Positions 2,122-64,000 of a stretch of DNA of 64,000 bases are shown piece by piece. This DNA comes from a virus (taxonomy: Duplodnaviria; Heunggongvirae; Uroviricota; Caudoviricetes; Crassvirales), in the IMG/VR virus record IMGVR_UViG_3300027816_000067, positions 8,322 through 72,321 of that record. One strand, written 5' to 3'. The position numbers and the translations under genes were made by a program. A model generated the notes under the pieces. That model made no database searches. It worked only from the letters and a program-made list of their open reading frames with translations, and was not told where the DNA came from. How positions within the stretch are numbered: the first letter of the stretch is position 1; every line of letters starts with the position of its first letter.

Positions 2122-3429
2122 CTATGCAGAAATAGAAGGGAATAACGAACCAAATAAAGCAGAGGTCTGCATTATGTCTTCAAAATCAGATTGATTTTTG
2201 TTTGCAGTATCTGCAATACCTTCCGGGAAAGCAACGATTAATACACTCTTTAAATCAAATACTGATCCTTGATCTCCACCTGCTTGATTTGCATTTTTTA
2301 CTTCAAGGAAGTATAAATCATAACCCACAGGAGCACCTACCTGAGAATATACAGTATCCAAAGGCATATAGCGAGTAATTTGATCTTCACTACCTTTTTT
2401 ACCAAGAGCTTCTTTTTCAAGATCAACTACTTGTGCTTTACTTCCACCAGAACCTACAGTTGCAGGAATTTGATACGTAATAGTAGTATTACGTCCAAGA
2501 GTATCTTGAACTGCTAGTTTTACGTTTAATAAATCACGACCGTCCAGAAAAGCAAGACCCCACTGAGTAGGAGCACCAGTAATATCTAATGTGTTAGCAT
2601 TAGCAATAGTTCCAGTTGGTCCTTGAAAAGGACGATCTAAAACTAAAGTAGTACCAGTAGTACCAGCTACAGATACATATAAATCACCGTCTAAACTTAC
2701 TAAATCACCAGCAGTTACACCGTGAGCAGCAGAAGTTGTAAGCGAAGTTGCACCATGAACAGCAGAAACAGTAGCAGACATTGCAAATGCTGCACCTGTA
2801 CCATTATGGCGAATTTTAATACTATTCTTAGCAATAAAAATATCATCGGTACGTAAGTTAACAGCTGCAACCCAACGACTTAGCAAAGAATAGGCACTTT
2901 CATTAACAGTTCTAGCCTGAATAGAAAGCTGTGTTTTTTGATAAGGTTGACGTTGACCTGTAACACGGTCTGCCTGATTAATTAAGTTAATGGTAAAGTT
3001 ATCACCGCGAGCAATACTTGCAGGTAAATTTAAAGAACTACCAGCAGTACCGTTAAAACCTACTCGATATTCACCACGTACAGGGGCAATATATTTAGCA
3101 CCAGCAGCTCTTTTAATACCACCTACACCAACTGCACCAATTTGAACTGGAGCAGATACTTCAGAAGGTCCACTAAGTTTACCGATAGCAATAAATACTT
3201 CCCGTCCTACAAATGATGCAGCAGGTACAGCACCAGCAACTTCAGAGCCACCATCTGTAATAAGCACAAGCTTATTTAAGTTAGTAGAGCCAGCTTCGTG
3301 AATACCATATATACCAATAGAAGCAGCGGCTAAATCTGCGGGATTAAGTGCTGTATTCTGTGTTGCACTCGACTTTGAGGCAGCATAGTTTACGTCTAAA
3401 TTCGATACTAAAACTTTTCTTGCGTGCAT
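2122..3429 (-). CDS. Hypothetical virion protein (Gly/Ala/Thr/Ser-rich)
   Basis: 435-aa ORF in the structural block; composition resembles beta-rich structural proteins. Confidence 0.5.
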   Translation of the reverse strand: MHARKVLVSNLDVNYAASKSSATQNTALNPADLAAASIGIYGIHEAGSTNLNKLVLITDGGSEVAGAVPAASFVGREVFIAIGKLSGPSEVSAPVQIGAVGVGGIKRAAGAKYIAPVRGEYRVGFNGTAGSSLNLPASIARGDNFTINLINQADRVTGQRQPYQKTQLSIQARTVNESAYSLLSRWVAAVNLRTDDIFIAKNSIKIRHNGTGAAFAMSATVSAVHGATSLTTSAAHGVTAGDLVSLDGDLYVSVAGTTGTTLVLDRPFQGPTGTIANANTLDITGAPTQWGLAFLDGRDLLNVKLAVQDTLGRNTTITYQIPATVGSGGSKAQVVDLEKEALGKKGSEDQITRYMPLDTVYSQVGAPVGYDLYFLEVKNANQAGGDQGSVFDLKSVLIVAFPEGIADTANKNQSDFEDIMQTSALFGSLFPSISA

Positions 3430-3440
3430 TGTTTATTTAT

Positions 3441-4172
3441 TTAATTTTCCAAATTTACTATTTTTTGTTGTGGAGTTTCTATAATCTTTGCTATCTTAAT
3501 TGCAGTCATTTTAACTATAGTGTAATGTACTGAATCAGGTAAATCACAGTTAAAAGAACCAGTAGGAGTAAATGCTCCATTTATATCTTTATTATATAAA
3601 ACTTTTACAGGTCTTTTTATATAATCTAGACTTGCTCCAGTAACTGTAAATCCGTTTTCATATATATAAACACTATCACCTACTATTTCTCCTAACGGAG
3701 ACTCTTTCATAGATTTATAAAAAGAACTTCTTTTCATTGTATCTATATCTTGAGTATTGCCAATTCTTAAAGCTGGTTTTGGTGTAACAGTTTTTGTTAC
3801 ATTTTGTCCATTTTCAATACATTGATAAGTTACAGTAAGTTTTGTTTTTATATGATGTAAATAAGTTGCAGGAAGATCAAATTTTTGACCTTCTCCACTA
3901 ACAACGGTTAAAGGTCTATTTTCTTCTCTTACATGAATAGTTCTTAAACTGTCAAGACTAACTTGATCTGCTTGAAAACCTTCAGCAACACCAACTTTTG
4001 GTTTTTGTCCTTTATAAACAGCAACAACGGCTTCAATAAATTCGTAAATTTGGTTATTAATCTGCAAATCTATTTCCTCTGATTCAAGATCATCATAGGC
4101 AAAGAAGCCCATTTTCTGGACTTCTTGCTCTATAAGCCTATGCATATCTTGAATTGTCAGTAAATTAGCCAT
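3441..4172 (-). CDS. Hypothetical structural protein
   Basis: 243-aa ORF tightly packed in the structural operon. Confidence 0.5.
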   Translation of the reverse strand: MANLLTIQDMHRLIEQEVQKMGFFAYDDLESEEIDLQINNQIYEFIEAVVAVYKGQKPKVGVAEGFQADQVSLDSLRTIHVREENRPLTVVSGEGQKFDLPATYLHHIKTKLTVTYQCIENGQNVTKTVTPKPALRIGNTQDIDTMKRSSFYKSMKESPLGEIVGDSVYIYENGFTVTGASLDYIKRPVKVLYNKDINGAFTPTGSFNCDLPDSVHYTIVKMTAIKIAKIIETPQQKIVNLEN

Positions 4173-8021: not shown

Positions 8022-10352
8022 TTATTCCCCTGATGTTTTATTCTTTAGTTTTGTTTCATTATCTAGTTTATTCATACGTTCTTTTGAAGCAATTTCTCTT
8101 AACTTAGTTGCGTTCTTCATCATTTCAATCGCATTTTTTTCTAACTCTATTTTTGTCATATCAATTTTTTCTTTATCAGCATTTGGATCAGCTTCTAAAG
8201 AAGAAAGATTCTCCGCGATTTTCATTCCTTGTTGAATAAGAGCAACTTGAGTATCTGTAAGTGCCTTTAAATCTGCATCATAATATTGAAAATCTAATTG
8301 ATCTTGTTTTGTCTTAGCTTCCATATCAGTCATATACTTCTGTAACTGATCTTGTCTTGCTTGACGTTGTTCTAACTTTACATCCATCTCATCCATTATT
8401 TCATGAATAGCTGCAAAATTATTACTGTCAATTAATTTAGCAATAGATTTAGCATCACCACCATTCTGTACTAGTGGATGTATTTGTTCTTTCATTAAAT
8501 TAAGTTTCTCTAATTCTTCTCCTCCGTTACGTACAAATACTCCAAAATCTGTATTTACGTAAGTAGAAGGATTAAGTAAATCTAAAATTGCTTTAGCGCC
8601 ATCTGGACGCATATACTGTGCATAAATACCATCACTAAAAGCAAATTTAGATAGTTCAATTAATCCGGTATATGCTCTCTGTTCCAGTTCTTCAAATTGT
8701 AAGAACAGTTCTTCACTAACTACATAACCTGTTTGTAGAGCAAATTGACTTGTGGCTTTTCCGTCACTAGCCATAAAGTTTCCCTTACGTTGACGATTAA
8801 TACCACATAACTCATCGTACTCTGCTTTAATTGCTGCAACTAGCTCAAAAGAACGAGTAATATGCTCACTCATACTAAGGTCGAGTTCCTTTAAAGCTTG
8901 AACCATTGCAGAAGCGTTTGATCTTGTATCATCAAAAAACAAGAAACTAAATGCTCTTACATAATACATTAACTTATCTTCATCCCATCCTTCTTTTTTA
9001 GGAATTAAACCAAGAGGAAAAAGAATAATCTTATCAAGAGACTTTAACAAACTTTCTTCTGCACGATATTTTACAATATTAACAGATTTTTGAAACGCAT
9101 CTCCTTTAGTTACTATTGATCTAGGACGTGTGTGACGTGAAAAGAAATTACGTCCATTGTATAATAACTTAGCTTTACCAGGATTATTATATTCTCCGCG
9201 TTGAATTGGAATAGGACGTCCTCCTATATAATAATTATCTCCAATACAATATACTTCACAAATTTCATCTACCCAACGCCACTCGATTTCAAACTCTCCT
9301 CTATCTTTAAATGTTTCATCTACGTAAATATAATCAACATTACCAAAAATATCAGTAGTTGTAATTTTACCTACTTTAATAGAACTACGCCATAAGATAT
9401 GATCTACTTCTATACCATCACTATATTGTTCTTCCGGAAGAGTACCAAATACATTTCTGTATAATTGAGACTGTTGTGCAAAGACATCACTAGAAGCATA
9501 ATAATAACTATCACTTCTTCCAACGTTTTGTCCTCCAGATTGACGTTCTAGAAAATCTTGTAGTTCTTGTTTATTAAAACCTTCTACTCCTTGAAAGCGA
9601 TCATAAATTTCGCTTACACTTAATTTATGAGTACATTTAACTGATTCACCGTCTTCAATAAAGTCATGATGAGGACTGCATAAATAATTAATATTAACTG
9701 GACTTACAATTTCAAAATGTGTCCTATTATTAATAACGTCATTATAATAATAGGTCATTGCATTTACAATAAAATCATAAAATCCTTTTCTAAAATGTCT
9801 AAACAAATCATTATAGTCCATTATAAACTCTAACGCTGCTTGACCTTGTTTAGTTACTTCATCAGGAAGGTTCTTTACTTTTCTAGCAATTTCATCAAAT
9901 TTATATACAATTTCTTCTTCTTCCAATGGAACACCCATTGCAACAGAATTATTTACAAACATCTGTTGAAGATGTTCAGTCATTAGTTGTTTATAATATC
10001 TTGCTTGATCGCTAGTGTAATTATGATTTCTAGCATAAACAATAGGTGTAAATCTACGTTTAGATTTTTCACCCATTAATGTGTTGACATTAGGACTTAT
10101 AATATCATAATTACGCATTTTAGCTGGATAGCCTTGTAATTCCCAGCGTTTAGAGTTAATAGGATTAGTTACATATAAATAATCCTTTTCGTCTAATTCT
10201 CCATTAGCTAATCTGTAATTCTTTAATGCTTCTGCTTCATCTATTGCAGGTTGACAAGCATCACGATAATACTTACCATTTTCTTCATACCAATCAGCTG
10301 TTTTTTCTGATTTAGGTACACGTTGTTTTGGTCTACTATGAACTCTAATCAT
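8022..10352 (-). CDS. Putative portal protein
   Basis: 776-aa ORF directly downstream of the large terminase, with a charged coiled-coil C-terminal tail. Called from position and size. Confidence 0.45.
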   Translation of the reverse strand: MIRVHSRPKQRVPKSEKTADWYEENGKYYRDACQPAIDEAEALKNYRLANGELDEKDYLYVTNPINSKRWELQGYPAKMRNYDIISPNVNTLMGEKSKRRFTPIVYARNHNYTSDQARYYKQLMTEHLQQMFVNNSVAMGVPLEEEEIVYKFDEIARKVKNLPDEVTKQGQAALEFIMDYNDLFRHFRKGFYDFIVNAMTYYYNDVINNRTHFEIVSPVNINYLCSPHHDFIEDGESVKCTHKLSVSEIYDRFQGVEGFNKQELQDFLERQSGGQNVGRSDSYYYASSDVFAQQSQLYRNVFGTLPEEQYSDGIEVDHILWRSSIKVGKITTTDIFGNVDYIYVDETFKDRGEFEIEWRWVDEICEVYCIGDNYYIGGRPIPIQRGEYNNPGKAKLLYNGRNFFSRHTRPRSIVTKGDAFQKSVNIVKYRAEESLLKSLDKIILFPLGLIPKKEGWDEDKLMYYVRAFSFLFFDDTRSNASAMVQALKELDLSMSEHITRSFELVAAIKAEYDELCGINRQRKGNFMASDGKATSQFALQTGYVVSEELFLQFEELEQRAYTGLIELSKFAFSDGIYAQYMRPDGAKAILDLLNPSTYVNTDFGVFVRNGGEELEKLNLMKEQIHPLVQNGGDAKSIAKLIDSNNFAAIHEIMDEMDVKLEQRQARQDQLQKYMTDMEAKTKQDQLDFQYYDADLKALTDTQVALIQQGMKIAENLSSLEADPNADKEKIDMTKIELEKNAIEMMKNATKLREIASKERMNKLDNETKLKNKTSGE

Positions 10353-18242: not shown

Positions 18243-19224
18243 GCACCTCTCTTCTCTGTTTCTCATCATGACATAGCATACTATTCATATATAGCATATG
18301 ACACAGCTAACACAAAACCAGATCAAAGAGCAAGTACAACTCAACATTAATAAGATAGAAGCAATGCTACGCGCACCATATTATAATGTAAATGAGCTGT
18401 TGAAACTGCGGAATATGACGAAGATACTTCAAAAACAACTACTGTAATGAAGCATCTTCGCATACTCTTATCCATTAGTGTTATCAGAATTGCTAATTTT
18501 GATATACTAATCATGGATTTACTCATGTTGGTACCTGATACCACAGTTACTTTCACATTTCTTTTCTAACTTACCATTGTTTCACTTTCTAATAATATAA
18601 CCTTATGACTAAATCTTCCGAATATCATTTACCTTCTGATGCATACTGGGTATGCTCTGATAAGTACAACGGATTATCTTCCAAAAGTAAGTATGTAGGC
18701 GCAACGAACCGCGTTTTATCTCGCAACACACAAGTTAGTGTTTTACGAGATAAGTCATCATGTAGTAAAGAATACATACAACGTACTGGTCGTCACAATC
18801 GCGGAAAATGAAAAAACCAGCACGTATTACTAAACAACTAGCTGTATGATACTAGCTATTGCACTTATTGCTACTGTATCAGTACTTATTAATTATCTTT
18901 TTCTTGTAAATACACCTACTGGTAAAGATACAGAAGCGGGTAGTGCTATGTTTCATACATTATTTTTGATTGTTGTATCTACAATAGCTTGGTGGTATAT
19001 TAGTATTGCTATGGGTATTGTATGGTTGTGTTGTTCTTTTCTTATTCTTTTTGCTTATATTATTTACTATACAAGGAAATAATATTAGTTAGTGTTTTTC
19101 ATTAACTAAGACAGATTCTGAATCCTGTCTTGATTGCTGCTCATAGTGAACCATCTATGGCTTTTCTGAAGAGTTACATTGGAGGAATTATCAAAGTGGT
19201 GACAGCTTGGAAAGACAAGCAAAT

Positions 19225-19373
19225 AGTCAGGTGGCGGAATTGGTACGCCATTGTAATATAAATGAGAACAGATTAGGGCCTACTCAAACCAGACCACGCT
19301 ACAGAAATGTAGGTTAGAAATAACAGTCGTGAGACCCTTTATTACAAAACAGGTTCGAATCCTGTCCTGACTA
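19225..19373 (+). ncRNA. tRNA-like element A: Leu-type acceptor/D/T arms with an ~85-nt insertion in the anticodon-arm region
   Basis: 5' AGTCAGG-TG-GCGGAATTGGTACGCC (acceptor + D-arm). 3' ACAGG-TTCGAAT-CCTGT-CCTGACT-A (T-arm plus a perfectly complementary acceptor strand and discriminator A). The intervening segment is closed by a 7-bp helix TTGTAAT/ATTACAA and contains two GAAA-tetraloop hairpins. Total length 149 nt. Confidence 0.55.
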
Positions 19374-19434
19374 CAATGAAGACTGTTACTAATTCATAGG
19401 ACAAGACAAGTAGTAAGCGTAGAATTAGATTTTT

Positions 19435-19583
19435 AGTCAGGTGGCGGAATTGGTAGACGCACTTATAGAAGAATCAGGGATTGACTCCTGATACCTTAAC
19501 CATAAGGTAAAGCATTGTTGAATGATGCAACTATAAGATTTAAGTATATACATTAAATACAGGTTCAAATCCTGTTCTGACTA
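19435..19583 (+). ncRNA. tRNA-like element B: type-II architecture with a ~65-nt insertion in the anticodon-arm region
   Basis: 5' AGTCAGG-TG-GCGGAATTGGTAGACGC, identical to a bacterial tRNA-Leu D-arm. A 7-bp helix CTTATAG/CTATAAG encloses three hairpins. A variable-arm hairpin ATTTAA..TTAAAT follows. T-arm ACAGG-TTCAAAT-CCTGT, then acceptor TCTGACT-A. Also 149 nt. Confidence 0.55.
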
Positions 19584-19602
19584 CAAATAAAAAACAAATA
19601 AG

Positions 19603-20733: not shown

Positions 20734-20762
20734 CACAGTCAGGTGGCTGAATTGGAATAAGG

Positions 20763-21269
20763 TTGCCTCCCGCTAATGACGGAACAGAGTATGTAGAAGC
20801 ACATTACCAATTCTTTTTACTAAACATTAAATTAAAACAAATGAACAGATTTCAAGATTTTATGACTAATCCAGCAAATATGGATATAGTCAAAGGTGTA
20901 ATTGCTATTTTTCATCCTGATATTAATCTTGATAAGCGTAAAATAACAATTTACATCAAGCATGATTGGGTGATTATACACACAGAAGGGATAGATATTG
21001 GTGTTGAAGTACTTCCTAATGAGTTTTGTGCTTATAATGGCTTTATGGAACCAGGTTATACAGCACAATCATTTCAAAAGTCTTTGGATAATGGTACTTG
21101 TATTTATAAAGCTTGGAGATTTGTTGATGATTCTAAGTATGCTGAAACAGAAACAGAAGAGTATATAAAACCTGAAAAGCTTGTGCATGAATACCTGAAA
21201 GATAAAAATGTTCCAATACCTACTGCACAGGAAATGTATAAGTACTATTATAGAAGTAATAGTGATTAA
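20763..21269 (+). CDS. Hypothetical protein (annotated start is a TTG overlapping a tRNA-like fragment; the real start is likely the internal ATG near 20841)
   Basis: 168-aa ORF. Confidence 0.45.
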   Translation: MPPANDGTEYVEAHYQFFLLNIKLKQMNRFQDFMTNPANMDIVKGVIAIFHPDINLDKRKITIYIKHDWVIIHTEGIDIGVEVLPNEFCAYNGFMEPGYTAQSFQKSLDNGTCIYKAWRFVDDSKYAETETEEYIKPEKLVHEYLKDKNVPIPTAQEMYKYYYRSNSD

Positions 21270-21394
21270 ACTTACAATAACTTGTAAAATCACTTATAGC
21301 TGTTTGATGCGTTGCTTAATTGTGCATAACGAACAAGAATATAACCAGTGCCGATTATTAAGAGATGAACTATATTTGAAATACAAACTGAAAA

Positions 21395-21608
21395 TATTAA
21401 AAAAGATGGCGGGAAAACCAGTGGCCGAGCAGTGTAGTTCTGGTACAGACACCAATCAAATGAGATTGGCAGAACAATGGCCGACAAGTGGAAGTGTTGG
21501 TGATGAGAGGCAACACAGGGCAAGTAGTAATACGTTTGTAGCCTACCATGTAACACGCTGCCCCCTCCCGTGTGGTGCTGGCTGTAATCGGGGTTAGCCA
21601 TCTTTTTT
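21395..21608 (+). ncRNA. Candidate structured ncRNA (GC-rich) ending in an intrinsic terminator
   Basis: A GC-rich island inside AT-rich DNA. Internal hairpins (CCAATC aaatga GATTGG) and direct repeat TGGCCGA. Ends with TGGCT..AGCCA hairpin + T6 at 21579-21608. The two overlapping ORFs here (21208..21597 + and 21290..21601 -) look like non-coding sequence. Confidence 0.35.
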
Positions 21609-23454
21609 AATATTTTTTATTCACTAAACTATCCTATGAAACGCTCATACAAACATTCTTGCCCAGAAGGATGCTCTAAGGTTGTAAAGAGTGCGTAGCT
21701 CATAACGGTGAAAGACCTAAAATATGAAATACATAACTAAGCTTAAACTTGCAGCAGTACACCAATTATGTGATCATGAAGATAAGTCTACTGAATATAT
21801 GTATCAACTAATGCAAGATACTTGTAAAGTTGATATAGATACAGTAAATAATTACATGATTAATGAAAATCATAGTAAGTTATTTAAAGAACTGAATGAA
21901 TTAATTGATGTATTTGAAAAAATATAAAAACGGACTTTAACAGATAGTGGCCGGAAATAGCACGAACTTGATTAGAATGATGAAATAAGGTTTTAAAATT
22001 TAAAAACGACTAACAGATAAACCGTCCTACGAAGAGTAGAAATAAATTGGTTTGATAAAATGAGTTCTGTTTGCGTTGCGATAATGGGTGAAGATGACTT
22101 CATAACAAAAGTTAGGATTTCAAAAGACACTATTAAATACTTCTGGTTTAGAGAGGAAGAAGCATTTGAAGCAGACCACATTTGGTGTCAAGGATAAATT
22201 ATATTGTATGAAAAGTATGTCGTGTTATCATAGAGCTTTTTGTAGTAAGTGTTATTTTGAGAACAAGGTTGGTAGAGAAAGAGTAGCTGGTGATATAGCG
22301 AGACGTTAAACGACTCTAACACACTACCAACTTTAAAAACTGATTGAGATAATTATGAAATAAAACTATGAAAAAGACATAATGATCTACAGGTAGATTT
22401 AGAACTAAAGATAGAAGTCATTCTTCTAATGGAGAGCTAGGTAAATTAGAGTATCTAATCCTACGACAAATGTCTGCTGAATTGTAGTAACCAACTTATA
22501 AACTGTTCTTTATCTTCCTTAAATCTGGTAAAATAAAAATAATCTAGATAATAGGCTAAACATTGATCCTTTGTGAATAGGTTTGTGTAGCAATGCAACG
22601 TCAATAAGTCAAAAAGCTTAATTCACATAAAGATACTAATCCTGAATTAATAGGATGTTAATAGAGCATCGTAAAACCGATATCTATTAATGCTGTAAAG
22701 CTAGATGTGTTGTTCCCTTGAGAAAGGATAGTAAAGGAAACTTCCCAAAAGGAAGAACATACCCAACACAAATGAGTTCTCAGCAAGTAGTTAAATAGCA
22801 GATTGTCTCGTCCATACAATCAACTACATGACCCTACTTAATATATTAGCTACGTTAAATTGTGCCTAGTAATTAAAGGGTGCTAACATACTTAAAATAT
22901 GTTGACGATAAAGATAGATACCAATAACAACAATGGAAGTATGTATCAAACTTTTAGTAATGGTATTACTTGGAGATTGATATAAAGATTTAACTCTTCT
23001 GCTTGAAGACAAACAACTATATATCTCCAAAACAAAAACTATCGGAGATTTGGCGTAAGTACCGAGTTATAGTTCTGTTCCAGCAGTTAATGTTTGTTGT
23101 AGAGATAGTAAGTTCTGAACGTTCTACTTGAATTGACAAGTAATGTAGGTATTAAATTACCATGCTATGTAAGAATAAACTATTCCAACTAGAAAATTGG
23201 ACAGAAGAGTTATTAACATTAAAACTACTAACAAGAATAGAATAACAAGATATATGTCGCATACGAATGTATATTGTATATTGTTGCTCTATAAGGTCTG
23301 TATTAGTTAGTAGTTTTATTTTAAACATTAAAGATTTAAGAGTAGTAGAGTGAATGTATATAGAGGAAATTGTAGTGTTTAGCTACGTACTAAAACTCAA
23401 AGCTAGTAGTCAACTTATTAGTACTATTCTTATTAATTTTAAACATTAAAGATT

Positions 23455-23808
23455 ATGGGAGATATGGCAGATTATTATAGAGTACAACAAATGGGGGATG
23501 AGTTTCTTGAAAACTTTCCACCTAAAGTTCTAAAACCATTATTACATAAATGTAAAGATGGTAAAATTATAGATATTAGAGGTGTATCAAAAGATTATCC
23601 TAAAATGGATGATAATCATCTTATTAATACTATTAAATATATTCAGAAAAGAGCTAAAGAAGGAATTAGAATTAGAAAAGGTGGGGGTTCTGATGCTGAT
23701 AGTTTTTGGTATGAAGAAGATTTTTTAATAGGTAAAAAAGCATTAAAGCATTTACACTATAAAAAATATGTTAAAGAAGCAATAAGAAGAAATTTAAGAA
23801 TACCTTAA
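23455..23808 (+). CDS. Hypothetical protein
   Basis: 117 aa; first ORF after the ~1.5 kb ORF-free region. Confidence 0.5.
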   Translation: MGDMADYYRVQQMGDEFLENFPPKVLKPLLHKCKDGKIIDIRGVSKDYPKMDDNHLINTIKYIQKRAKEGIRIRKGGGSDADSFWYEEDFLIGKKALKHLHYKKYVKEAIRRNLRIP

Positions 23809-24033: not shown

Positions 24034-24858
24034 ATGTCAAAAAGTAATGTTGAGAAATTGATGGCTAAGTCGGTAGTGTGCTCCTTCTCAAAAGAAAGTA
24101 TTAGCAATAAAGCTACTCAAGCTGCATTGCAAAAGCTTGAAGAAAAGATAGCTGCTGAATTAGAAAAACAAATCATTATATTACCTAAAAAGATGACTAT
24201 GAAAACATTTCAGAATTTACTTAAAGACTTTCGTGCTTGTCAAGAAGCACAAAAATGGGCATCTACTTTTACTATTGAAGAAACAATAGCTAAAGTAGAA
24301 CGTGGTGACTGGTTATTATGGTTAGCTAAAAAATTAGACTTACCTATTAAACCTCTAACGTTAGCTAAAGCTAGATGTGCTAAAACAGTAATTCATTTAA
24401 TGAAAGATCAAAGAAGTATTGATGCGGTTAATGCAGCAGAGAGATTTGGTCTGGTAGAGGAAATGACATTAGAAGACTTAGTACCTTTTGCAAGATCTAC
24501 TTATGATGCTGCTTCTGCTGCTGCTTATGGTGCTTATGCTGCTTATGCTGCTTATGTTGCTGCTAATGTTGATGATCCTCCTGCTTATGTTGCTAGTGAT
24601 CCTGCTGCTTATGCTGCTTATGCTGTTGCTACTGCTGCTGCTTATACTGCTGATGCTGCTGCTAATGTTGATGATACTGCTGCTGCTACTTATGCTGCTG
24701 ATACTGCTTATGCTGCTGCTTATGCTAATGTTAATGATCCTCCTGCTGCTTATGCTGCTGCTTATAAAAATAATCAAAAACAAACAGCAGATATTTGCAG
24801 AGAAATACTTGGTCAACTGATAATTGATAAAGTAAATTTAATGTTAAAATATACCTAA
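24034..24858 (+). CDS. Hypothetical protein with C-terminal Ala/Tyr tandem-repeat region
   Basis: 274 aa. Residues after ~150 are AAYAAY / ANVDDPPAY repeats encoded by tandem gct-gct-tat codon repeats (24490-24770). Confidence 0.55.
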   Translation: MSKSNVEKLMAKSVVCSFSKESISNKATQAALQKLEEKIAAELEKQIIILPKKMTMKTFQNLLKDFRACQEAQKWASTFTIEETIAKVERGDWLLWLAKKLDLPIKPLTLAKARCAKTVIHLMKDQRSIDAVNAAERFGLVEEMTLEDLVPFARSTYDAASAAAYGAYAAYAAYVAANVDDPPAYVASDPAAYAAYAVATAAAYTADAAANVDDTAAATYAADTAYAAAYANVNDPPAAYAAAYKNNQKQTADICREILGQLIIDKVNLMLKYT

Positions 24859-55942: not shown

Positions 55943-58900
55943 TTATTCTATTATAGTGTTAGTTAACGACACAAGTACTGGAGGATTATTACTAAAAAAC
56001 TTTAATTGCTCTTCAGGAGTTCTAGCATTGTAGTAAGTACCAGCAAAAGGTACTAATTCAATACCTATAATCTCATAATTCTTTAATCCCTTGTACTTTC
56101 CTTTCTCCATTTCATCGTTCCAATTCCAAACTTCTATTAATCTTTGTAACTTTTCAATTTGACGAATTGCAGGAAGAGGACTACGTGCAAGACGTATAGC
56201 TTCTTGAGGGTTACTATAAAACTGCAATTCAGAATGTATTCTCAATGCTTCGTAAGCAATAAATGCTGCTACCCAATTATCTTCATCATCTGCATATGCA
56301 GTAGCTAAAGAAGCTATTGCTGCTGTAGCAAGCATAAAACTAAATTCTGTGGCAACACGGATTAAATTAGCTTTTTCTACTGCTTTTATAGTTTCGTCAG
56401 TAGTTCCTAAAGTATCTTTAAGTTCTGTCAATTCTAGAATAGAACGTTTTAACACTCTCCACAGTGTTGTGTAATATCCTTCTGTATAAATTTCCCCTTC
56501 CTCATTATAAGTAAGTTTTTCAAATCGTCTGTTCCACCCTGGTTTCATCCATTTTCTAAATAATAAACCCATTCGTCCTATAGCATATCTATGAACTGCT
56601 GCTTTATCTATATCATTATAGATACCATGTAATCTCTTATTTAAGAAGTTTTGTCTGTTAATAAATCTATTAACATCTTTTTGAGTCAATGGCTTACCGT
56701 TTTCTTCTTTCTTAAATAAATCAGTTGCTTTTTCTCCTCCTACCTTTGTCAATCCTTCTTTTAATTTAAGTCTATAAGATGGATTTTCCTCTGTTCCCAC
56801 ATTTACAACATCATAAGCTTCCCAAAGAGTCATTATATTTCCTTCAGTATCTTTTACTTTTATTCTTTGAGCAAGTGCTAAAGAAGATTTAAGCTGCATA
56901 TAATGTTCACCACTTCTATTCATAAAGTATAAACTAGATTGAGTAAACATTCTAGAGAACCAATTTGTTCTACCAGTATTTGCGTCTCTTAATTCTCTAT
57001 TGTAGTCTTGCAGTGTATTATGATATTCACTCCATAAGCTTAATTTATTAGATACATTTCTAGCACCAATATCTTTTAAAGTACTAGGTAATTCACTTAA
57101 ATAAATTTTATCTGCTTCTAATAAATCTTTATTAGTAATAAGTTCTCCAGCAAATGCTTCCATTCTAGTCATTATATTACCATAAGCTAAGTTAGCAACA
57201 CCTGCATAAACGTTCAAAGCAAGAGAAGATAAAGATGTATATTTATTTAAAGTATCTGCAAGCTTTGCAAATTTTTCATCTTTCTTTTCATTACCATAAA
57301 TTACCATTTCCATATAATCTTGATAACGTGCAAATGCTTTACTATTTTCACCTTTAATAGTAATTTGTTTACCTTTTTCTCCTTCTTTTTTAAAGTAAGT
57401 AATAGGATCAAAAGTACCTGTTAATATTTCTCTTTCAATAAGAATATCTTTAGATAGTTCCACCATATCTACTACTTTACTAATAGCCTGATAGTTATAA
57501 GCTGAGTTAACTAAAGCAATTAATGAAGAACTTGCATCAGTAGATAATTGTGTAGGATCAATAGGTCTAGTATAGAACATAGGTACAAAATTTACAGGAT
57601 TACCTTTTTCATCTGTAAGTTTTGTTAATCCAAACTCTATATCATCACCAGCTTGCTTTTTAAAAGCTTCCAGTATAGTTTCCTTACCTTCGTTTAAATA
57701 ATCTTTAGGAGATTTAAGAGTTCTTTCTCCATTTTTATCTACAAAAGCTAATCTTTCAAAGAAATCTTTTCTTACTTGTGGCATATAACCAAATAGTTTA
57801 TATGCTTCAGGTAATTGAGATTCTACTTCTTTTAATAAATTAGTATATTTATCATAATAAGCTTTAAGTGCTGGATTATTTTCAATCTCTGCAAATTGAC
57901 GGCTTAAATACTTATCAGAAGGAACAGCAAGTTCTTTAATATATCTAAGTTCACGCTCTCCACTTTCAGGATTATATATTTCTGTACTATTTTTAGCAAC
58001 CCAGGCATTATACTCCCTTATACCAATACGTTGACCATATCGTGTAATAAATTCCTTTTTCTTATTTTCTAAAACTTCTTTATAATTAGGATTTACTTGA
58101 GTATTAATACTAAACCACTCTGCTACTTTTCTATTCCACTCTCTTTGTTTAAATGCATCTTCTGGTTTTGGTCCAATAGACTTAAAAAAGGCAGATTTTG
58201 CTTTATTATATTCAGCAACATTCCACTTACTAATCATTCTACCTGAAAGATTGCCTGCAAAATCTCTTTCATACATCCAATTAGTAGATTTAATACCAGC
58301 TTTTTCTAATTCCTGCTGCATATCTACTATAGATTTTGCTTTTTCTAGTAATGGTACTCTATAATTATTTAATGAGTCTTTAACAATAATATCAATAATT
58401 TTTAAAATAGGATCACCGGATTCAGCTAAAGCATCTAAACCTCGTTGAGTAAAAGAAATATCTTTTTCTAATACTTCTAGTGCTTTTTCCATATCCTGTT
58501 TTAATTTAGGATTAGATGAAAAAGACTTAAATATATCAGCAAGAAGTGTTTTACCTAATTTTAAATAATTATTTTTTAAAGCTTGAGTAGTCACATAGGT
58601 ATCACTAGCTTTAACATTAATACTATTATTCGTAAAAGGTTTATCTGTTGCTAATTTTTCTAATGTACTTTCAAAACCTAAAACATAATTTTGTGCAGAA
58701 CGAAGAGTATTAATTAATTCTCTTTTTTCTTCTAAAGTTTCAGGTATTCCATTTTTAATAATTTCACCGATTTGATTATATCGTTTTGCAACTGTATCCA
58801 ATTCAATTCGTGCATTAGCTAAATATCTTAATAAACCTAACTCATATTTCTCTTTATTAAGATCTTTTATTAATTTGTCAAAAATGTCTTTTTCTCTTTG

Positions 58901-61900
58901 TAAGTAGGTACTACCAGCTTTTCTTTCATATAAAGATAATTTCTTAAAAATAGAATCAATACCAAGTTTAAGAGTTTCTATATTATCGTTAATGTCTTTT
59001 TCAGAACTTAACTTATAAAATACCTCTCCAATTTTAATATTTCTGTTAGTAAATATATTGGTATTACCAGCTAATATTTGTTCTGCAATATATTCTGTAA
59101 TACTATTTACTTCTTTATTAAAATCAGCTATATCTACTTTTCTAAAAATACCAATAAATCTGTTCCATAAAGCTTCTAAGAATTGAAGTACTACGTTATT
59201 AGTGTTTTTTCTAGTTTCATTATACCGCTTAACAATAGCTTTTCCTATAAGTTTACCAATCGTTTCTCTTTTTAAAGTAGTTATATCTCCAGCATAAATC
59301 TCTCCATATTCATTTACTACTTCTTTATACTCGGCAGTATTTTGAACTAAACCCATTAAACTATCGTGAAAAGATGTTCCTCTAGTAAATGCTTCTGCAA
59401 AGTGTCCAATTTCTTCAGGAAGAGTATTTACATTTTCTTTATTTTGTGAAATAAGAATAAGTTTATTGTAAATATCCGCAGCACCAGCAGCATCTATACC
59501 TAATCTAGATTTAAGATTTTCGTGTGCTTCTACTTTAATTCCTAAAGAACTAGCAAATGTTTTTAATATATTATTAAGATTTTCATCTGCTTTCTTAACG
59601 TTTTGTTGAGAATTTTCTAAAGAATATAAAGTTGTATAATCATAATCTACATCGAAGTAGCTGTCAGCATTAATAGATTTGATTTTGTTAGAAGGTATAT
59701 TTGTTTCAGCAGGATTTAATTTATCAAACTCTACAATATGGTTTTCATATCCTAGATTTTCCTGAATATTAAATACAGTTTCATTATTTTTAGTAGTTCC
59801 ACTATATTTAAAAGTATAGGTGATACCGTTACTATTTTCGTATAAAAACCGATTACGTATTACTTTCCCTTCTTCATCATAAATACCTAAACTTCTACTT
59901 TTAGCTTCGTCAAATTTCATACTAGTAACAAAACCACCTTTATTCTTTTTTGTTACAGTTACATCTTCTTTTTTCAAAGTTTGAAGTAAAGTATTATAAG
60001 TACTTTTATGTCTATATATTTGATCTAAATAATTTGCAATTAAATGCGTACTATCTTTTTCATTTTGTAATCTATATACAAAATCTCGATAAGAAACATC
60101 CTCTTTATTTCTTAGGTTTTCTAAGAAATTAATAGGAGTTAGATGAGAAAATCCAGTATATTTAAATCCTAAATATGTAGTAAAAAAAGCATAGTTTAAT
60201 AAATCATTGGCCATTCCTTTAATCTCTACATTATCAGAACCTAACATAGATTCCCAAGCATCTTGTAATCGCTCTATCTGCTCATTACTAATAGTAGCAG
60301 CAGAAGTAAACTCAATTCTTTGTAGGTTATTAAACGAACTCTTACTTTTAACAGCAAGATATTTAATCAATTCTAATTCAGGATATTTTTTCTTTAATGC
60401 TACAAATTTAGCAGGGTATTCATTTATATAATATAATTTTTTAGTCTCATCAAAGAAACTAAAATCACTTATATAAAAATGAATAAAGTTATTAAATACA
60501 TAATTTATTTCATCTGCTGTTAATTCTTGACCTTTATTATTTTCTAAAACATTAACTAATGTCTTAAATAGTTTTCCATTATAAGGAAAATATCTAGATA
60601 GTATCTCCTCTTGTGGTTTTTTAACACCGTATTCAATAGATATATCAATTAAAGGAATATTTAAAACTGAATCAATTCCAGTTAAAGATTTTAGTTTACT
60701 TACATTACCAACACTTTCTAAAAAATGAGTATTTTCTGCAAGAGTTTTACCTACACCATTAGTATCTGCTTTTGAAGCTTTAATTAAAGCAGATAATTGT
60801 TTGCCTGTTTTTCTTAATTCTAAGAAAGTTTCTAAAACTTTAGCTTGTAATAGTGCTGCTTTACGTTTTGCAGTAGGATCAGGAATATTAGCAAGACTCA
60901 CAAAAGATTTTCCTAATTCTTTTGTACTTAAATCATACATTTTAGATTTAGGATAATCTCCAATAATTTTTGTAAGTTGTTGCCGTAAATCTGTTACAAT
61001 CTTATCAACTTTTGCTTCTGACTTATTTTGATTATTATATTGATTAACTAGATTTTTTAAGATAGATTGATTAATAAAATACATCGCTGTTTTTAAACTA
61101 AATCCAGCACGTATAATTAAAGCAACACTATCAAAAGTAAATAAGTTAAGATTTAAACCAGTTGCTACGGGGTCTTTTGCTGTATCTACAAACGCACCTA
61201 AAAATTCTGCTAAGTTTTGACCTACTGATCTTCCTTGCTCTGTTGTTTCCGTAGTATGTAAAGAAGATCTTCTTTCTCCGTCAAAACTAATTGATTGTGT
61301 TAAACCAAGTTTAGAATATTGAGTAAGAGCATGACTACTATTGTGATTAGCAGCAAGACCAATTAAATTCCCACCATTACTATTGATATCAAAATATTTA
61401 CTTTCTGTTCTTGGTAATATAATATTATCTTGACGTATCAACGCTCCATAAGAATCTCTTATTTCATTATGTAGAGTTTTTAAAGTATCAAATCCACCTG
61501 GAGTTAATACTTTACTCGACATATCAGGATGAGAATATATACTGTTTATAATATCTAATAATGCATTATCTCTCTGAACTTTAGATAAAGTTTCAGGTTT
61601 ATCTAAATTATATTTTACTTTTCTTAACTTCCAATTTACTTCTTCTAGAGTAGGAAGAATAGTGTAAATTTTATCAATATCGAAGTCTTCACCAGCAATA
61701 GTAGTAATATCATAAGGTAGTAAAGCAACACTACCCATAATATCGGGAGTAAATCCTACAATTTTCATTTTTTTAATAGAGTACCATCCTTCTGTGGGAA
61801 TACGATAGCCTATTAATTCTAATACTTCTGGAGATTCTTTTTGAAGCTGTTCAATATCTACTTCACCTTTCTTATCTTTTAATTCAAAAAACTTACGAGT

Positions 61901-64000
61901 ATAAGCAGGAAGCATTACTTCCATATACTCTACTCCACCTTCTTTATTTTTTACTATTTTTAATTTCTTATCTAATCCCCAACTAGAAACCAAAGTAAGA
62001 GAAGCACCAGCAATTTTTTGTTTTGTAACATTATTACGAATAACAGCATTTAAAATATTTTGTGTTCTTCTACCATGAATAGGATCAAATAGAGGAATAT
62101 TAAATATTTTATTACCTTCTTGATCAATTACAATTTTTAAAGCTTCGGCATAAGACTCACTTAGACCACGATCTCTAACTTGTTCTAATAGCAATTTTTG
62201 AACACTTTCAATGGTCTGAAATTCACCAGATAGAGTATTATAAGATTCTATAATATTATCTGTTAATAGTTTTTGATAGGTTTTGAATAATTCTTGTTTA
62301 TTCATACCCATAATTTCAATATTATCAGGAATTTCAGATAAAGCTAATTTCTTAAACTGAGTTCCAAGTAATACTTCAATATCTAAATGTTTAGCTGGTA
62401 CTCTTTGCTGAATACCATAATCCTTATTATTTAAGATGTGAATAACTGGTTTTGCACCTTTTAAAAATTCTTCTACTGTTACTGCACCGTATTCTCCTAC
62501 TTTAACAGCAGAGTCTGCAAATTGAATTTCATCAATATTATTAGCATCCATGTAATCCAGTAATTTTTTTAATACTGGATTTTCTTTAGCCATAGCTGGC
62601 GTAAGTAATGCTTGGCTGTTTTTATGCTGTACTGGTATAATTATATCAGTACCATCTATATTTTCGTGTGTAAATGCAAAAGGCTTTATAGAAGATGGTA
62701 GAAAATTAGAAAATCCTGTACTCCATGCTCCTTTCTGTGCTTTTTGATAAGTAGATTCGTGTTGATCTGTCCATTTACCAATACCAATCATTATGTTTTT
62801 ATATCTATTTAAACGAATAAATGATTGAGCATCTGTAACATTTACATTTTTAAATAGTTCTGTATCTTCTTTAACATCTTTTAAATAAATACTTTTATAA
62901 TATTGTCCAACACCAGTACCATCTTTCCAAACAGCAGTAGTATCTAGTCTATCTGTTAATTTATAAATTTGACCATTACGTTTTTGAAATGTAATAGAAT
63001 CTTTATAGAAAGATAGATCAATAGATGTTAATTGAATAATATTAACATTAGCGTGAACTTTATTATAAAAATAATCTTTTAAATTATCTACTAAATTACC
63101 ATTACTAGTTACAAAAAACGAAGTTTGATCTCCTTTTATTACTTCTAATGTAGTTAAACGATCTAGTTCTATTTTAAATTCTTCATTTAACCAATTAGTA
63201 ATAGCTTCTTTAGCAGCTTTTATATTATTAATATCTATATTAGGATCGTTAAAGATAGTTAAAAACTGATATTCTTTACCTCTAGTTTCCCAATGTTTAA
63301 TACCTAATTCTTTATAAGTATCTACTTTTTCAATTCTTTCTTTTTCTGCTAAAGCTACTTGATATAAGTTATCTACTATTTCTTGCTTAGTATATTTTTT
63401 AAATCTAATAGTAGGTGAAGTAGGACTATCAGAAAGAATTGGTACTCTGTAATATGCAAATTTTCCAGAATTAAACAAAGCAATATCTGATATTGCTAAA
63501 TCTTTTTCTGTCATTTTACTAAATGCCGTACCTTTATTAGTGTCAAATAAATTAATTCCATTAAGAATAGCTAGACTAAAATTCTCTCTTAATTCATAAT
63601 TTTCTTCTTTATCTAAATCATTTAAAAAAGCATTAGATTTAAACCACCAGTTTTCTAGTAATTGTTTTCTATTATTATTTTTCTTTAAATCAGTAATTAA
63701 ATTAGATAAGAAAGTAGGAAGTGCGTAACTATATACTTGTTCACCTTCAATGTTAATTACAGAATCTAAATGTAATTGAAGACTATTTGAAGCAACAGTT
63801 GTAGATACGCTTATAAGAGAAGATGATTCGGCTGTGTCTCCTTCATAAGGATTAATACTTGCTGTAATAGAAGTTAAAATAGTAGTTAAAGAACGAGGTC
63901 CGCCTATAAAATTATATAAATTTTCAACAGCTGTAAGTCCTTCAGTACTATAATAAGTGGGTCTTTCTATAAACTCATTTATAAATACTTTAGGAGAGAT
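55943..64000 (-). CDS. Giant protein (at least 2685 aa; N-terminus beyond the window), candidate virion-associated/ejected protein with an RNA-polymerase-like DFDID motif
   Basis: The ORF track starts it at 63514 (2523 aa), but the same frame stays open with no stop through 63515-64000. That is a further 162 codons, which I translated by eye (...NWWFKSNAFLNDLDKEENYELRENFSLAILNGINLFDTNKGTAFSK-MTEKDL), so the gene continues past the window. Residues ~606-614 (track numbering) read IAGEDFDIDKIY, a hydrophobic strand followed by an Asp triad. Confidence 0.85.
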   Translation of the reverse strand: MSPKVFINEFIERPTYYSTEGLTAVENLYNFIGGPRSLTTILTSITASINPYEGDTAESSSLISVSTTVASNSLQLHLDSVINIEGEQVYSYALPTFLSNLITDLKKNNNRKQLLENWWFKSNAFLNDLDKEENYELRENFSLAILNGINLFDTNKGTAFSKMTEKDLAISDIALFNSGKFAYYRVPILSDSPTSPTIRFKKYTKQEIVDNLYQVALAEKERIEKVDTYKELGIKHWETRGKEYQFLTIFNDPNIDINNIKAAKEAITNWLNEEFKIELDRLTTLEVIKGDQTSFFVTSNGNLVDNLKDYFYNKVHANVNIIQLTSIDLSFYKDSITFQKRNGQIYKLTDRLDTTAVWKDGTGVGQYYKSIYLKDVKEDTELFKNVNVTDAQSFIRLNRYKNIMIGIGKWTDQHESTYQKAQKGAWSTGFSNFLPSSIKPFAFTHENIDGTDIIIPVQHKNSQALLTPAMAKENPVLKKLLDYMDANNIDEIQFADSAVKVGEYGAVTVEEFLKGAKPVIHILNNKDYGIQQRVPAKHLDIEVLLGTQFKKLALSEIPDNIEIMGMNKQELFKTYQKLLTDNIIESYNTLSGEFQTIESVQKLLLEQVRDRGLSESYAEALKIVIDQEGNKIFNIPLFDPIHGRRTQNILNAVIRNNVTKQKIAGASLTLVSSWGLDKKLKIVKNKEGGVEYMEVMLPAYTRKFFELKDKKGEVDIEQLQKESPEVLELIGYRIPTEGWYSIKKMKIVGFTPDIMGSVALLPYDITTIAGEDFDIDKIYTILPTLEEVNWKLRKVKYNLDKPETLSKVQRDNALLDIINSIYSHPDMSSKVLTPGGFDTLKTLHNEIRDSYGALIRQDNIILPRTESKYFDINSNGGNLIGLAANHNSSHALTQYSKLGLTQSISFDGERRSSLHTTETTEQGRSVGQNLAEFLGAFVDTAKDPVATGLNLNLFTFDSVALIIRAGFSLKTAMYFINQSILKNLVNQYNNQNKSEAKVDKIVTDLRQQLTKIIGDYPKSKMYDLSTKELGKSFVSLANIPDPTAKRKAALLQAKVLETFLELRKTGKQLSALIKASKADTNGVGKTLAENTHFLESVGNVSKLKSLTGIDSVLNIPLIDISIEYGVKKPQEEILSRYFPYNGKLFKTLVNVLENNKGQELTADEINYVFNNFIHFYISDFSFFDETKKLYYINEYPAKFVALKKKYPELELIKYLAVKSKSSFNNLQRIEFTSAATISNEQIERLQDAWESMLGSDNVEIKGMANDLLNYAFFTTYLGFKYTGFSHLTPINFLENLRNKEDVSYRDFVYRLQNEKDSTHLIANYLDQIYRHKSTYNTLLQTLKKEDVTVTKKNKGGFVTSMKFDEAKSRSLGIYDEEGKVIRNRFLYENSNGITYTFKYSGTTKNNETVFNIQENLGYENHIVEFDKLNPAETNIPSNKIKSINADSYFDVDYDYTTLYSLENSQQNVKKADENLNNILKTFASSLGIKVEAHENLKSRLGIDAAGAADIYNKLILISQNKENVNTLPEEIGHFAEAFTRGTSFHDSLMGLVQNTAEYKEVVNEYGEIYAGDITTLKRETIGKLIGKAIVKRYNETRKNTNNVVLQFLEALWNRFIGIFRKVDIADFNKEVNSITEYIAEQILAGNTNIFTNRNIKIGEVFYKLSSEKDINDNIETLKLGIDSIFKKLSLYERKAGSTYLQREKDIFDKLIKDLNKEKYELGLLRYLANARIELDTVAKRYNQIGEIIKNGIPETLEEKRELINTLRSAQNYVLGFESTLEKLATDKPFTNNSINVKASDTYVTTQALKNNYLKLGKTLLADIFKSFSSNPKLKQDMEKALEVLEKDISFTQRGLDALAESGDPILKIIDIIVKDSLNNYRVPLLEKAKSIVDMQQELEKAGIKSTNWMYERDFAGNLSGRMISKWNVAEYNKAKSAFFKSIGPKPEDAFKQREWNRKVAEWFSINTQVNPNYKEVLENKKKEFITRYGQRIGIREYNAWVAKNSTEIYNPESGERELRYIKELAVPSDKYLSRQFAEIENNPALKAYYDKYTNLLKEVESQLPEAYKLFGYMPQVRKDFFERLAFVDKNGERTLKSPKDYLNEGKETILEAFKKQAGDDIEFGLTKLTDEKGNPVNFVPMFYTRPIDPTQLSTDASSSLIALVNSAYNYQAISKVVDMVELSKDILIEREILTGTFDPITYFKKEGEKGKQITIKGENSKAFARYQDYMEMVIYGNEKKDEKFAKLADTLNKYTSLSSLALNVYAGVANLAYGNIMTRMEAFAGELITNKDLLEADKIYLSELPSTLKDIGARNVSNKLSLWSEYHNTLQDYNRELRDANTGRTNWFSRMFTQSSLYFMNRSGEHYMQLKSSLALAQRIKVKDTEGNIMTLWEAYDVVNVGTEENPSYRLKLKEGLTKVGGEKATDLFKKEENGKPLTQKDVNRFINRQNFLNKRLHGIYNDIDKAAVHRYAIGRMGLLFRKWMKPGWNRRFEKLTYNEEGEIYTEGYYTTLWRVLKRSILELTELKDTLGTTDETIKAVEKANLIRVATEFSFMLATAAIASLATAYADDEDNWVAAFIAYEALRIHSELQFYSNPQEAIRLARSPLPAIRQIEKLQRLIEVWNWNDEMEKGKYKGLKNYEIIGIELVPFAGTYYNARTPEEQLKFFSNNPPVLVSLTNTIIE

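Follow-up and report, generated by a model that had tools for sequence, protein, structure and literature searches.

What does a phage keep in 1.5 kb of DNA that carries no gene? The question is raised by a gap free of open reading frames (ORFs) at 21928-23454 of a 64,000-nucleotide (nt) stretch from a Crassvirales phage (IMG/VR record IMGVR_UViG_3300027816_000067, positions 8,322 to 72,321), the whole of which is termed the window here. The gap is bounded by the stop codon of a 67-aa gene (21927) and by the ATG of a 117-aa gene at 23455. An original prediction, made from the letters of the window, had proposed that it holds a large structured non-coding RNA (ncRNA), a replication origin or repeated promoter or operator modules. 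Based on the comparisons described below, the gap is very probably an array of conserved structured ncRNAs expressed from the plus strand. It holds at least two RNA modules, termed E1 and E3, which are under strong structural selection, specific for the plus strand, conserved across many phages and not contained in Rfam. A third structured module, E2, is probably present as well.

The 67-aa gene belongs to a widespread family of small proteins (162 clusters), and most of its relatives are followed directly by coding genes. In the loci L029 and L030, the 67-aa homologue is followed by three collinear blocks of 31-46 nt, which are 93-97% identical to window positions 22985-23224 and are separated by unalignable spacers of differing length. 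Probing with the blocks revealed 15 distinct canonical copies of E1 in IMG/VR and JGI metagenomes, within genomes of 28-42% G+C. The E1 blocks (26-46 nt) are 93-100% identical between phages, and the neighbouring 67-aa protein is just 81% identical there. Two divergent copies, in locus L174 (30.5 bits with model R1) and in Cellulophaga phage phi14:2 (18.3 bits, E ~0.002, same model), bring the homologues to 17. The near-identical relatives L002-L016 and L027 (99.4-100% identity) were useless for covariation. The parts of E1 are as follows:

22990..23217, plus strand: E1, the four-way-junction RNA (17 homologues, covariation, minimum free energy (MFE) fold, model R1)
22991-23001 / 23202-23212, plus strand: paired helix P1, 11 bp, which closes the module
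23009-23015 / 23091-23097, plus strand: helix P2, ACAAACA/UGUUUGU, with the extension CUU/GAG
23016-23074, plus strand: variable insert V1, enclosed by P2
23075-23086, plus strand: small hairpin CUG/CAG with the loop UUCCAG (23078-23083), enclosed by P2
23105-23109 / 23179-23183, plus strand: helix P3, variable in sequence and length
23184-23187 / 23198-23201, plus strand: short hairpin P4 with the loop CUAGAA (23189-23194)

The family was defined by the blocks AACUCUUCUGCUUGAAGAYAAACA, CUGUWCYAGCAGUKAAUGUUUGUU and UGGACAGARGAGUU, by P1-P4 and by a 6-bp loop-loop kiss. All helices are present in the window, where model R1 detects a single copy with 153 bits. Four helices meet in a junction with zero unpaired nucleotides. 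The small-hairpin loop UUCCAG is complementary over 6 bases to the P4 loop CUAGAA (family consensus CUG-UUCYAG-CAG for the small hairpin and CURGAA for the P4 loop); in the window, one of these pairs (CCAG/CUAG) is mismatched as C-A. This variable pair is CG in seven and UA in seven of the 15 canonical copies, and the window is the only one with a mismatch.

The E1 helices were recovered both by RNAalifold on a MAFFT alignment and by the MFE fold of the single sequence (z = -3.78; none of 200 shuffles was as stable). When the pairs were counted over the 15 canonical copies, 97.7% of the cells were paired compared to 36-51% for slid partners, and none of 500 shuffles reached this value. Seven pairs are compensated in this set, and P3 has compensation in four of its five pairs. 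With the two divergent copies included, 97.9% of 578 cells were paired (32-45% for slid partners; 0 of 500 shuffles), and 21 of the 34 pairs had changes on both sides, at least one in every helix. In L174 and phi14:2, the helices P1, P2, P3 and P4 and the kiss have all changed with compensation; the small hairpin has done so in L174 only. The helices contain G-U pairs that are compatible only with a plus-strand RNA, and the single-nucleotide polymorphism 22999 C>T of L013 keeps its pair as U-G. Thus E1 is read as RNA from the plus strand.

The E1 blocks A and B were the two patterns scanned against 185,579 bacterial and archaeal species genomes and are absent from them. An 18-mer from E1, AGCAGTTAATGTTTGTTG, was discarded as a probe, because its matches were swamped by an unrelated family of marine tail genes. 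Over 100 marine viral contigs (IMG/VR loci L042-L156) carry it, inside a gene that is annotated as tail protein in Pelagibacter phages; we take this to be a coincidence of sequence and not homology.

The second module, E3, lies upstream of E1 and is larger:

22549..22888, plus strand: E3, structured RNA module (homologues, covariation, model R2)
22552-22569, plus strand: conserved 5' block TAGGCTAAACATTGATCC, also used as probe
22706-22712 / 22764-22770, plus strand: helix Pb (GUGUUG/CAACAC), from RNAalifold, with 4 compensated pairs
22713-22729, plus strand: hairpin Pc with the loop UGAGAA (22719-22724)
22719-22724 / 22777-22782, plus strand: pseudoknot UGAGAA/UUCUCA, between the loop and a downstream single strand
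22878-22886, plus strand: conserved 3' block GGGTGCTAA

E3 was matched first in L157 and then, with the TAGGCTAAACATTGATCC probe, in L173-L176. Nine copies were found, with homologues in L157, L173, L174, L175, L176 (two in tandem), L167 and phi14:2 (L177); L039 has a partial or divergent version that shares the 5' block only. The family was defined by the 5' block UAGGCUAAACAUUGAUCC, by GUGUUG/CAACAC around the hairpin loop CUUGAGAAA, by AAUGAGUUCUCAGC pairing with that loop, and by the 3' block GGGUGCUAA. From UAGGCUAAACAUUGAUCC to GGGUGCUAA the copies span 284-519 nt. All blocks are found at 22549-22888 of the window, which is also the sole window match of model R2 (31.5 bits). The core alignment of Pb, Pc and the pseudoknot has 98.4% of its cells paired, a value reached by none of 500 shuffles, and nine pairs, one of them in the pseudoknot, have changed on both sides among six distinct sequences. 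The folds of E1 and E3 are therefore under strong purifying selection across many phages. These phages are Crassvirales of freshwater, soil, wastewater and seawater, and the conservation of the modules in relatives speaks in favour of a function.

The order of the modules differs between phages. E3 is followed by E1 in the window and in L174, and by only the 5' block of E1 in L157. The opposite order is found in L167/L159 and, with the partial E3, in L039. A tRNA-like element precedes two copies of E3 in L176 and follows E3 in L167, and a tRNA precedes E1 in L165. Where modules abut each other or a tRNA-like element, they do so head to tail at a distance of 0-15 nt. They are thus shuffled as units that adjoin each other and tRNA-like elements. 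The single large RNA of the original prediction is replaced by an array of separate, mid-sized modules, and its structured nature is borne out by the covariation of two of them. Regarding L176, we also observed that the tRNA-like element (reverse strand, ~150-880 of the reversed locus for the whole arrangement) is separated by 5 nt from the two E3 copies, which join head to tail as GGGGTGCTAA followed at once by TAGGCTAAAC. This tandem points to the module having been duplicated or to a processing signal that is repeated.

Known RNA families were searched in parallel. At the gathering thresholds of Rfam 15, only transfer-messenger RNA (tmRNA) and tRNA were detected in the whole window. At E<=10 over 21800-23600, nothing appeared in the gap besides a chance-level hit to RAGATH-33, and no large-RNA, intron, ribozyme or aptamer family was among the results. 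No family matched E1 or E3 in 14 homologous loci at E<=0.1. The proposed identity with GOLLD or ROOL does not hold, and models for group I/II introns and RNase P likewise gave no match in the gap. GOLLD and ROOL are ornate ncRNAs of phages and prophages, often located beside tRNA genes, whose function is unknown and which were found by covariation (Rfam; cryo-EM PMC12286853). E1 (170-250 nt) and E3 (284-519 nt) do not match them in sequence or structure and are, in contrast, smaller, separate modules of variable order. Introns were discarded as an explanation of the gap: relatives have both flanking genes (67 aa and 117 aa) in complete form, and the search that found no intron in the gap did detect a group I intron in L164, which served as positive control. 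This intron (368-572 on the minus strand of the locus, ~950 nt downstream of E1; 89.5 bits with Rfam) lies within a non-coding stretch of 1.45 kb, with no recognisable interrupted gene around it. The candidate csRNAs, 8,495 unnamed structured RNAs from IMG/VR (PMC10690425), come from the same data source (IMG/VR intergenic regions) and rest on the same kind of evidence as E1 and E3. Either module could be among them, and none of these candidates stands in Rfam 15 under a model that matches the E1/E3 gap.

In outline, E1 resembles a tRNA. Both have a four-way junction, and the contiguous strands of E1 allow two coaxial stacks, with a loop contact between the first and the last arm. The arms of a tRNA (acceptor, D, anticodon and T) come together at such a junction, with the contact made between its D and T loops. 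E1 also lies directly beside tRNAs or tRNA-like elements in some loci. However, it lacks T- and D-loop motifs, an anticodon and a CCA end, its P1 has 11 bp, and its elbow is a Watson-Crick kiss of 6 bp. ARAGORN does not call E1 and the Rfam tRNA model does not match it, so that it was rejected as a tRNA. Among viral tRNA-like structures and the bacterial Y-RNA-like YrlA, the Rfam YrlA model did not match E1. The tRNA cluster of phage T4 encodes stable RNAs of ~120-140 nt (species 1 and 2, or RNA C and D), which are derived from tRNAs, have no known function and are set free when the tRNA-processing enzymes of the host cut a shared precursor. They share with E1 and E3 the position among phage tRNA genes; for E1 and E3, processing would be of a similar kind. 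We know of no homology between the T4 RNAs and either module.

The remainder of the gap, with its flanks, is made up of the following features:

21724-21927, plus strand: 67-aa gene, upstream flank
21928..22235, no strand assigned: non-coding stretch with a 45-aa ORF at 22060-22197 (plus) and a 62-aa ORF at 21993-22181 (minus)
22236..22350, plus strand: E2, long hairpin, aligned with L038 and L164
22351..22548, no strand assigned: non-coding spacer, no homologue found, fold z near 0
22889..22989, no strand assigned: spacer between E3 and E1, with a 28-codon ATG ORF at 22899-22985 that ends 4 nt before E1
23218..23305, no strand assigned: 3' flank and spacer of E1, the first 23 nt of which (ATTAACATTAAAACTACTAACAA) are identical in L164
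23306..23336, plus strand: repeat copy 1, orphan leader GTTAGTAGTTTTATTTTAAACATTAAAGATT, no ATG after it
23407..23454, plus strand: repeat copy 2, leader directly 5' of the ATG of the 117-aa gene
23455-23808, plus strand: 117-aa gene, downstream flank

The stem of E2 consists of GGTTGGTAG (22267-22275) paired with CTACCAAC (22324-22331). It is the complementarity between GTTGGTAG at ~22268 and CTACCAAC at ~22330 that the original prediction had picked out, and the helix is kept in two other phages. The apical part of E2 is variable and its 3' tail TTTAAAAACTGA is conserved; in L038 and L164, stem and tail are kept around an unrelated apical sequence. The local fold has a z of -2.4. The match to RAGATH-33 (16.5 bits, E = 2.5, compared to a gathering threshold of 120.4) was dismissed as chance level. 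We have moderate confidence that E2 is a conserved long hairpin.

The absence of genes from the gap was confirmed. No ORF exceeds 62 aa (minus strand; 45-47 aa on the plus strand), and each of the six frames contains 32-60 stops of all three kinds (density ~10%), which excludes a gene with a recoded stop codon. Neither the stop distribution, nor tblastn, nor Pfam searches with the ten longest ORF fragments of the gap gave a credible sign of coding sequence, be it frameshifted or split by an intron. Within 21928-22235, no homologue was found among the fetched loci and no Pfam match was obtained. The 45-aa ORF at 22060-22197 is the only one that a gene caller placed in the gap. As a gene it was rejected: it has no relatives beyond its own 90% cluster and is broken by a common polymorphism, G>A at 22146, which turns Trp29 from TGG to TGA in 7 of 16 near-identical genomes. 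Positions 22886-22933 have an 85% match ~1 kb upstream of E1 in L170. A search for enriched short motifs within the gap gave nothing convincing. The gap has 31% G+C (A 0.38, T 0.31, G 0.18, C 0.13), close to the 29.7% of the window, so that the earlier description as moderately GC-balanced was overstated; its composition is mixed and nearly equal to that of the plus-strand genes.

At the 3' end of the gap, two copies of a direct repeat of ~40 bp, 114 bp apart, had been reported. The repeat is real and its second copy does abut the ATG at 23455, but its core measures 22 nt (21 of 22 identical; 23315-23336 and 23433-23454) with a spacing of 118, and the flanks (23293-23314 compared to 23407-23432) show no more than loose similarity. 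Within the window there are exactly two occurrences of the 18-mer TTTTAAACATTAAAGATT. L164 contains an identical 31-mer, directly after which a 24-codon ORF starts with its ATG; this ATG is missing after copy 1. Judged by these alignments, the repeat is a duplicated gene-start leader of which copy 1 has lost its ATG. The earlier idea of repeated promoter or operator modules was therefore broadly right for the repeat, as the leader stands before an ATG in L164 and in copy 2. The motif WTTTAAAC-N8-10-ATG also occurs at the gene starts 42710, 49416 and 24885. More widely, WTTTAAAC is seen 15-20 nt upstream of ATGs in the window (23438, 24885, 42710, 49416) and in phi14:2 (L177, 3525-3590). It is preceded by GTAGTAG in phi14:2 and in copy 1 of the window, and the related GTAGTAGTTTTAAAC lies upstream of phi14:2 gp010. 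WTTTAAAC may be a promoter or a signal for translation initiation in these phages, where it is seen without Shine-Dalgarno sequences.

The phage that carries the window has a genome of ~90 kb (longest contigs 89.8-90.1 kb) and recurs with 99.4-100% identity in many lake metagenomes. Its 2523-aa ORF (55943-63514, minus strand) aligns over 90-94% of its length with crAss-like RNA polymerase genes, with E down to 1e-129. On the strength of this predicted virion RNA polymerase homologue, the sole hallmark gene examined, the phage is a freshwater member of the Crassvirales. The missing Shine-Dalgarno sequences, judged by eye, would fit a Bacteroidota host. Downstream of the gap, the plus-strand arm contains genes for DNA polymerase A, ligase, helicases, a primase-like protein, ThyX, a dNMP kinase and UDG. 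The tmRNA and a tRNA-Leu are located 6.6 kb downstream of the gap. Two tRNA-like elements lie 2.3 kb upstream of it, ~3 kb upstream of E3/E1:

19225-19374 and 19435-19584, plus strand: tRNA-like elements of 150 nt each, with acceptor, D and T arms of the tRNA-Leu type

Both carry 57-58 nt of small hairpins in place of the anticodon loop. They were called by ARAGORN in intron mode only, and the Rfam tRNA model was silent. Fragments of such elements were seen at 20736-20757 (copy of the 5' half) and 19108-19140 (degenerate 3' half). Between the tRNA-like elements and the gap, a GC-rich island at 21300-21610 (plus strand; 44% compared to 30% G+C) ends with a hairpin and T6 at 21577-21609. It is overlapped by the ORF 21208-21597, on which the gene callers are inconsistent (96 aa, 129 aa or none). 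The island may be another RNA gene. As a paralogue of E3 it was rejected, as model R2 gave no match and its fold has a z of just -2.0. On the other side of the gap, the 274-aa ORF at 24034-24858 (plus strand) contains a repeat with a period of 9 nt (GCTGCTTAT and similar) at 24488-24771, which encodes tripeptides rich in Ala, Tyr and Asp; its length varies between 157, 226 and 274 aa among otherwise near-identical genomes. Through the 117-aa gene, a 32% relative was met in L001, but this phage has a high G+C content, is unrelated and lacks the gap. The 376-aa neighbour, used as anchor in IMG/VR, found no relatives.

Are the modules transcribed? A link to expression is provided by phi14:2, another member of the Crassvirales. 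E3 of the window matches it with E 4e-6 in blastn and 30 bits with model R2, and the full module lies at 2908-3362, within the 685-nt intergenic region 2905-3589 between gp006 and gp010. In GenBank, this region is annotated with three minus-strand ORFs of 34-39 aa only. The E1 homologue of phi14:2 is located in another intergenic region, 1279-1983, and a T-loop motif was noted near 1830. The small ORFs gp003-gp004 and gp007-gp009 (34-49 aa; KC821624) are annotated across the E1-like and E3 modules, in some cases on the other strand; these calls, like the 45-aa ORF of the window, are probably spurious. In the published transcriptome of phi14:2, rightward transcription of two long intergenic stretches, the 'g004-g005' and 'g005-g006 junctions', exceeds that of most genes already at the first time point; these non-coding transcripts remain abundant, and their function is stated to be unknown (Drobysheva et al., bioRxiv 10.1101/2020.03.07.982082; later Nature, 2021). 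The RNA polymerase of phi14:2 (2180 aa) is g066 in that paper and gp077 in GenBank, so 11 small GenBank ORFs were dropped from its numbering. If the tiny ORFs at the left end are among those dropped, g004 corresponds to gp006 and g005 to gp010, which puts E3 into the first abundant region. By this mapping, the E3 region of phi14:2 most probably is one of the two abundant early non-coding transcripts. Phage and window belong to the same order, and both loci are situated in a left, early and rightward-transcribed region with long intergenic stretches. The E1 and E3 modules are probably abundant early transcripts. In contrast to the present analysis, the phi14:2 paper reports abundance from RNA sequencing only, with no sequence family, structure or conservation, and does not single out the region 1279-1983 that holds the E1 homologue. 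The transcriptome paper on crAss001 makes no mention of non-coding RNAs.

How could such an array work? We propose that the gap is an ncRNA locus in the early, rightward-transcribed arm, in which E2, E3 and E1 would fold independently and be followed by the duplicated leader. The modules would be transcribed early as a single long RNA from which stable RNAs are cut, and tRNA-like elements might serve as punctuation for host RNase P and the 3' processing enzymes. The products would then have their target in trans, a host component of high conservation, and would not regulate the neighbouring gene in cis. That blocks stay identical in phages ranging from 28 to 42% G+C points to contact with a host partner that is itself very conserved, and downstream genes that differ from locus to locus speak against a role in cis. 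The tRNA-like outline of E1 and the tRNA neighbourhood suggest the tRNA or translation machinery, or a defence directed at tRNA, as the most plausible target. Action in trans on the tRNA machinery is put forward tentatively. Taken further, and held just as loosely, the tRNA-shaped E1 and its larger pseudoknotted partner E3 could represent an undescribed class of functional RNAs of environmental crAss-like phages, which might be excised from an abundant early transcript at tRNA-like punctuation and jointly serve as decoy, guide or catalyst on the host tRNA and translation machinery or on a tRNA-targeting defence.

Several observations weigh against the proposal. Neither homologues nor signs of structure were found for about half of the gap (21928-22235, 22351-22548, 22889-22989, 23218-23305), so that an array of RNAs leaves part of the 1.5 kb unexplained. 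E2 shows no compensatory change, with only three sequences to compare. The core alignments were assembled manually on sequence anchors, and knowledge of the structure guided the placement of the two divergent E1 rows, a bias towards the model. No promoter was identified: scans for sigma-70 and Bacteroidota-type promoters stayed at chance level, with no clear site upstream of the modules. The tRNA-like elements of the window are 3 kb away from E3/E1, with protein genes between them. Finally, the link to the phi14:2 transcripts depends on the inferred gene-number mapping, and we infer processing, action in trans and the target only from adjacency and topology.

The alternatives have to be judged against the same data. 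E1, and perhaps E3, might be cis-regulatory, either as a riboswitch-like element or attenuator of the downstream gene or as a 3' untranslated region that protects the upstream mRNA. This would fit the position of E1, which starts within ~10 nt of the stop codon of the upstream ORF in about half of the loci, and the terminator-like T-run after the 3' strand of P1 in seven loci. It would also fit the ability of block A to form an alternative hairpin (UCUUC/GAAGA) in competition with P1, in the manner of an expression platform; this hairpin is invariant, however, and hence permits no covariation test. Several riboswitch aptamers have the same architecture of a four-way junction with a tertiary loop contact, but the junction of E1 leaves no unpaired nucleotides for a pocket, and a riboswitch of any Rfam class was discarded for want of an aptamer match and because the downstream genes are unrelated or absent. 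The sequence 3' of E1 varies from the 117-aa gene to an HNH-like ORF, convergent genes or no gene; in L172, a GC hairpin and T7 terminator directly follow E1, and convergent genes come next. In the window itself, the next ATG is separated from E1 by 237 nt and the orphan leader, and P1 is not followed by a T-run. With E1 and E3 also interchangeable in order, regulation in cis appears unlikely. A catalytic role is another reading: E1, E3 or both could be self-cleaving or processing ribozymes, or derived from introns, and cut the early polycistronic transcript at the module boundaries. Junction and loop nucleotides that are invariant across very divergent phages, and pseudoknots or kissing loops, are typical of ribozymes, and the head-to-tail arrangement at 0-15 nt would suit such cuts. 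The similar non-coding stretch of L164 does contain a true group I intron, and E1 is followed by an HNH-type ORF in L041. This ORF of L041 (= L170) begins with MEEWRDIVGYEGNYQVSSFGNIRSLDR and runs from ~873 onward, ~45 nt after E1; by eye, its N-terminus is like that of HNH/NUMOD4 homing endonucleases. Nonetheless, no ribozyme or intron of Rfam 15 matches even at E<=10, no split host gene or exon context was seen, and by eye the topology is unlike the hammerhead, HDV-like, twister and hairpin ribozymes and the group I/II cores. We consider catalysis rather improbable. Both of these readings fit the variable context less well than action in trans does.

Two further explanations concern the gap as a whole. 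It could be the remnant of a decayed or replaced exonuclease/polymerase-like gene of 660-713 aa, or a neutral spacer. The 117-aa homologues in L017-L025 overlap the stop of such an ORF, and in L036 one lies downstream of the 67-aa homologue, at the position of the gap; moreover, the gap has the composition of plus-strand genes, and half of it is without detectable conservation. However, tblastn with the large ORFs against the window found nothing in the gap (best E ~0.5-1, elsewhere), stops make up ~10% in all frames, and the ORF fragments gave no Pfam signal. Among 16 genomes, which come from various lakes and various years, the gap is 99.9-100% identical, but so is the remainder of the genome. 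Since E1 and E3 are far more conserved than the neighbouring proteins and covary as RNA, decay or neutrality is already refuted for these two modules and is highly improbable for the locus. Even less can be said for an element that acts as DNA, such as a replication origin, a packaging site or an array of protein-binding sites. The long non-coding region does lie beside the replication gene module and does contain a short direct repeat, but this repeat aligns to gene-start leaders. Neither iterons nor an AT-rich unwinding island nor a GC-skew switch was seen at the gap, and the conservation follows base pairing of one strand with G-U wobble, for which sites in duplex DNA have no need. The origin suggested by the original prediction thus found no support, and we give a DNA element hardly any weight.

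In summary, the conserved array of structured ncRNAs is the reading that we retain. CrAss-like phages are among the most abundant viruses, and their early regions are almost entirely uncharacterised. In the transcriptome of one cultured member, the most abundant early and persistent transcripts are non-coding and had been left unexplained. Transcripts of the phi14:2 type now gain sequence families, models at the level of base pairs and an environmental distribution, and phi14:2 on Cellulophaga baltica offers a cultured system for functional work on the modules. The annotation can be corrected as well, as the tiny ORFs called across the module regions are probably spurious. Topology and tRNA neighbourhood make the hypothesis of a role in tRNA handling or tRNA-directed defence concrete. 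If the proposal is true, the unexplained abundant ncRNAs of phi14:2 would receive a defined structure and a testable role.

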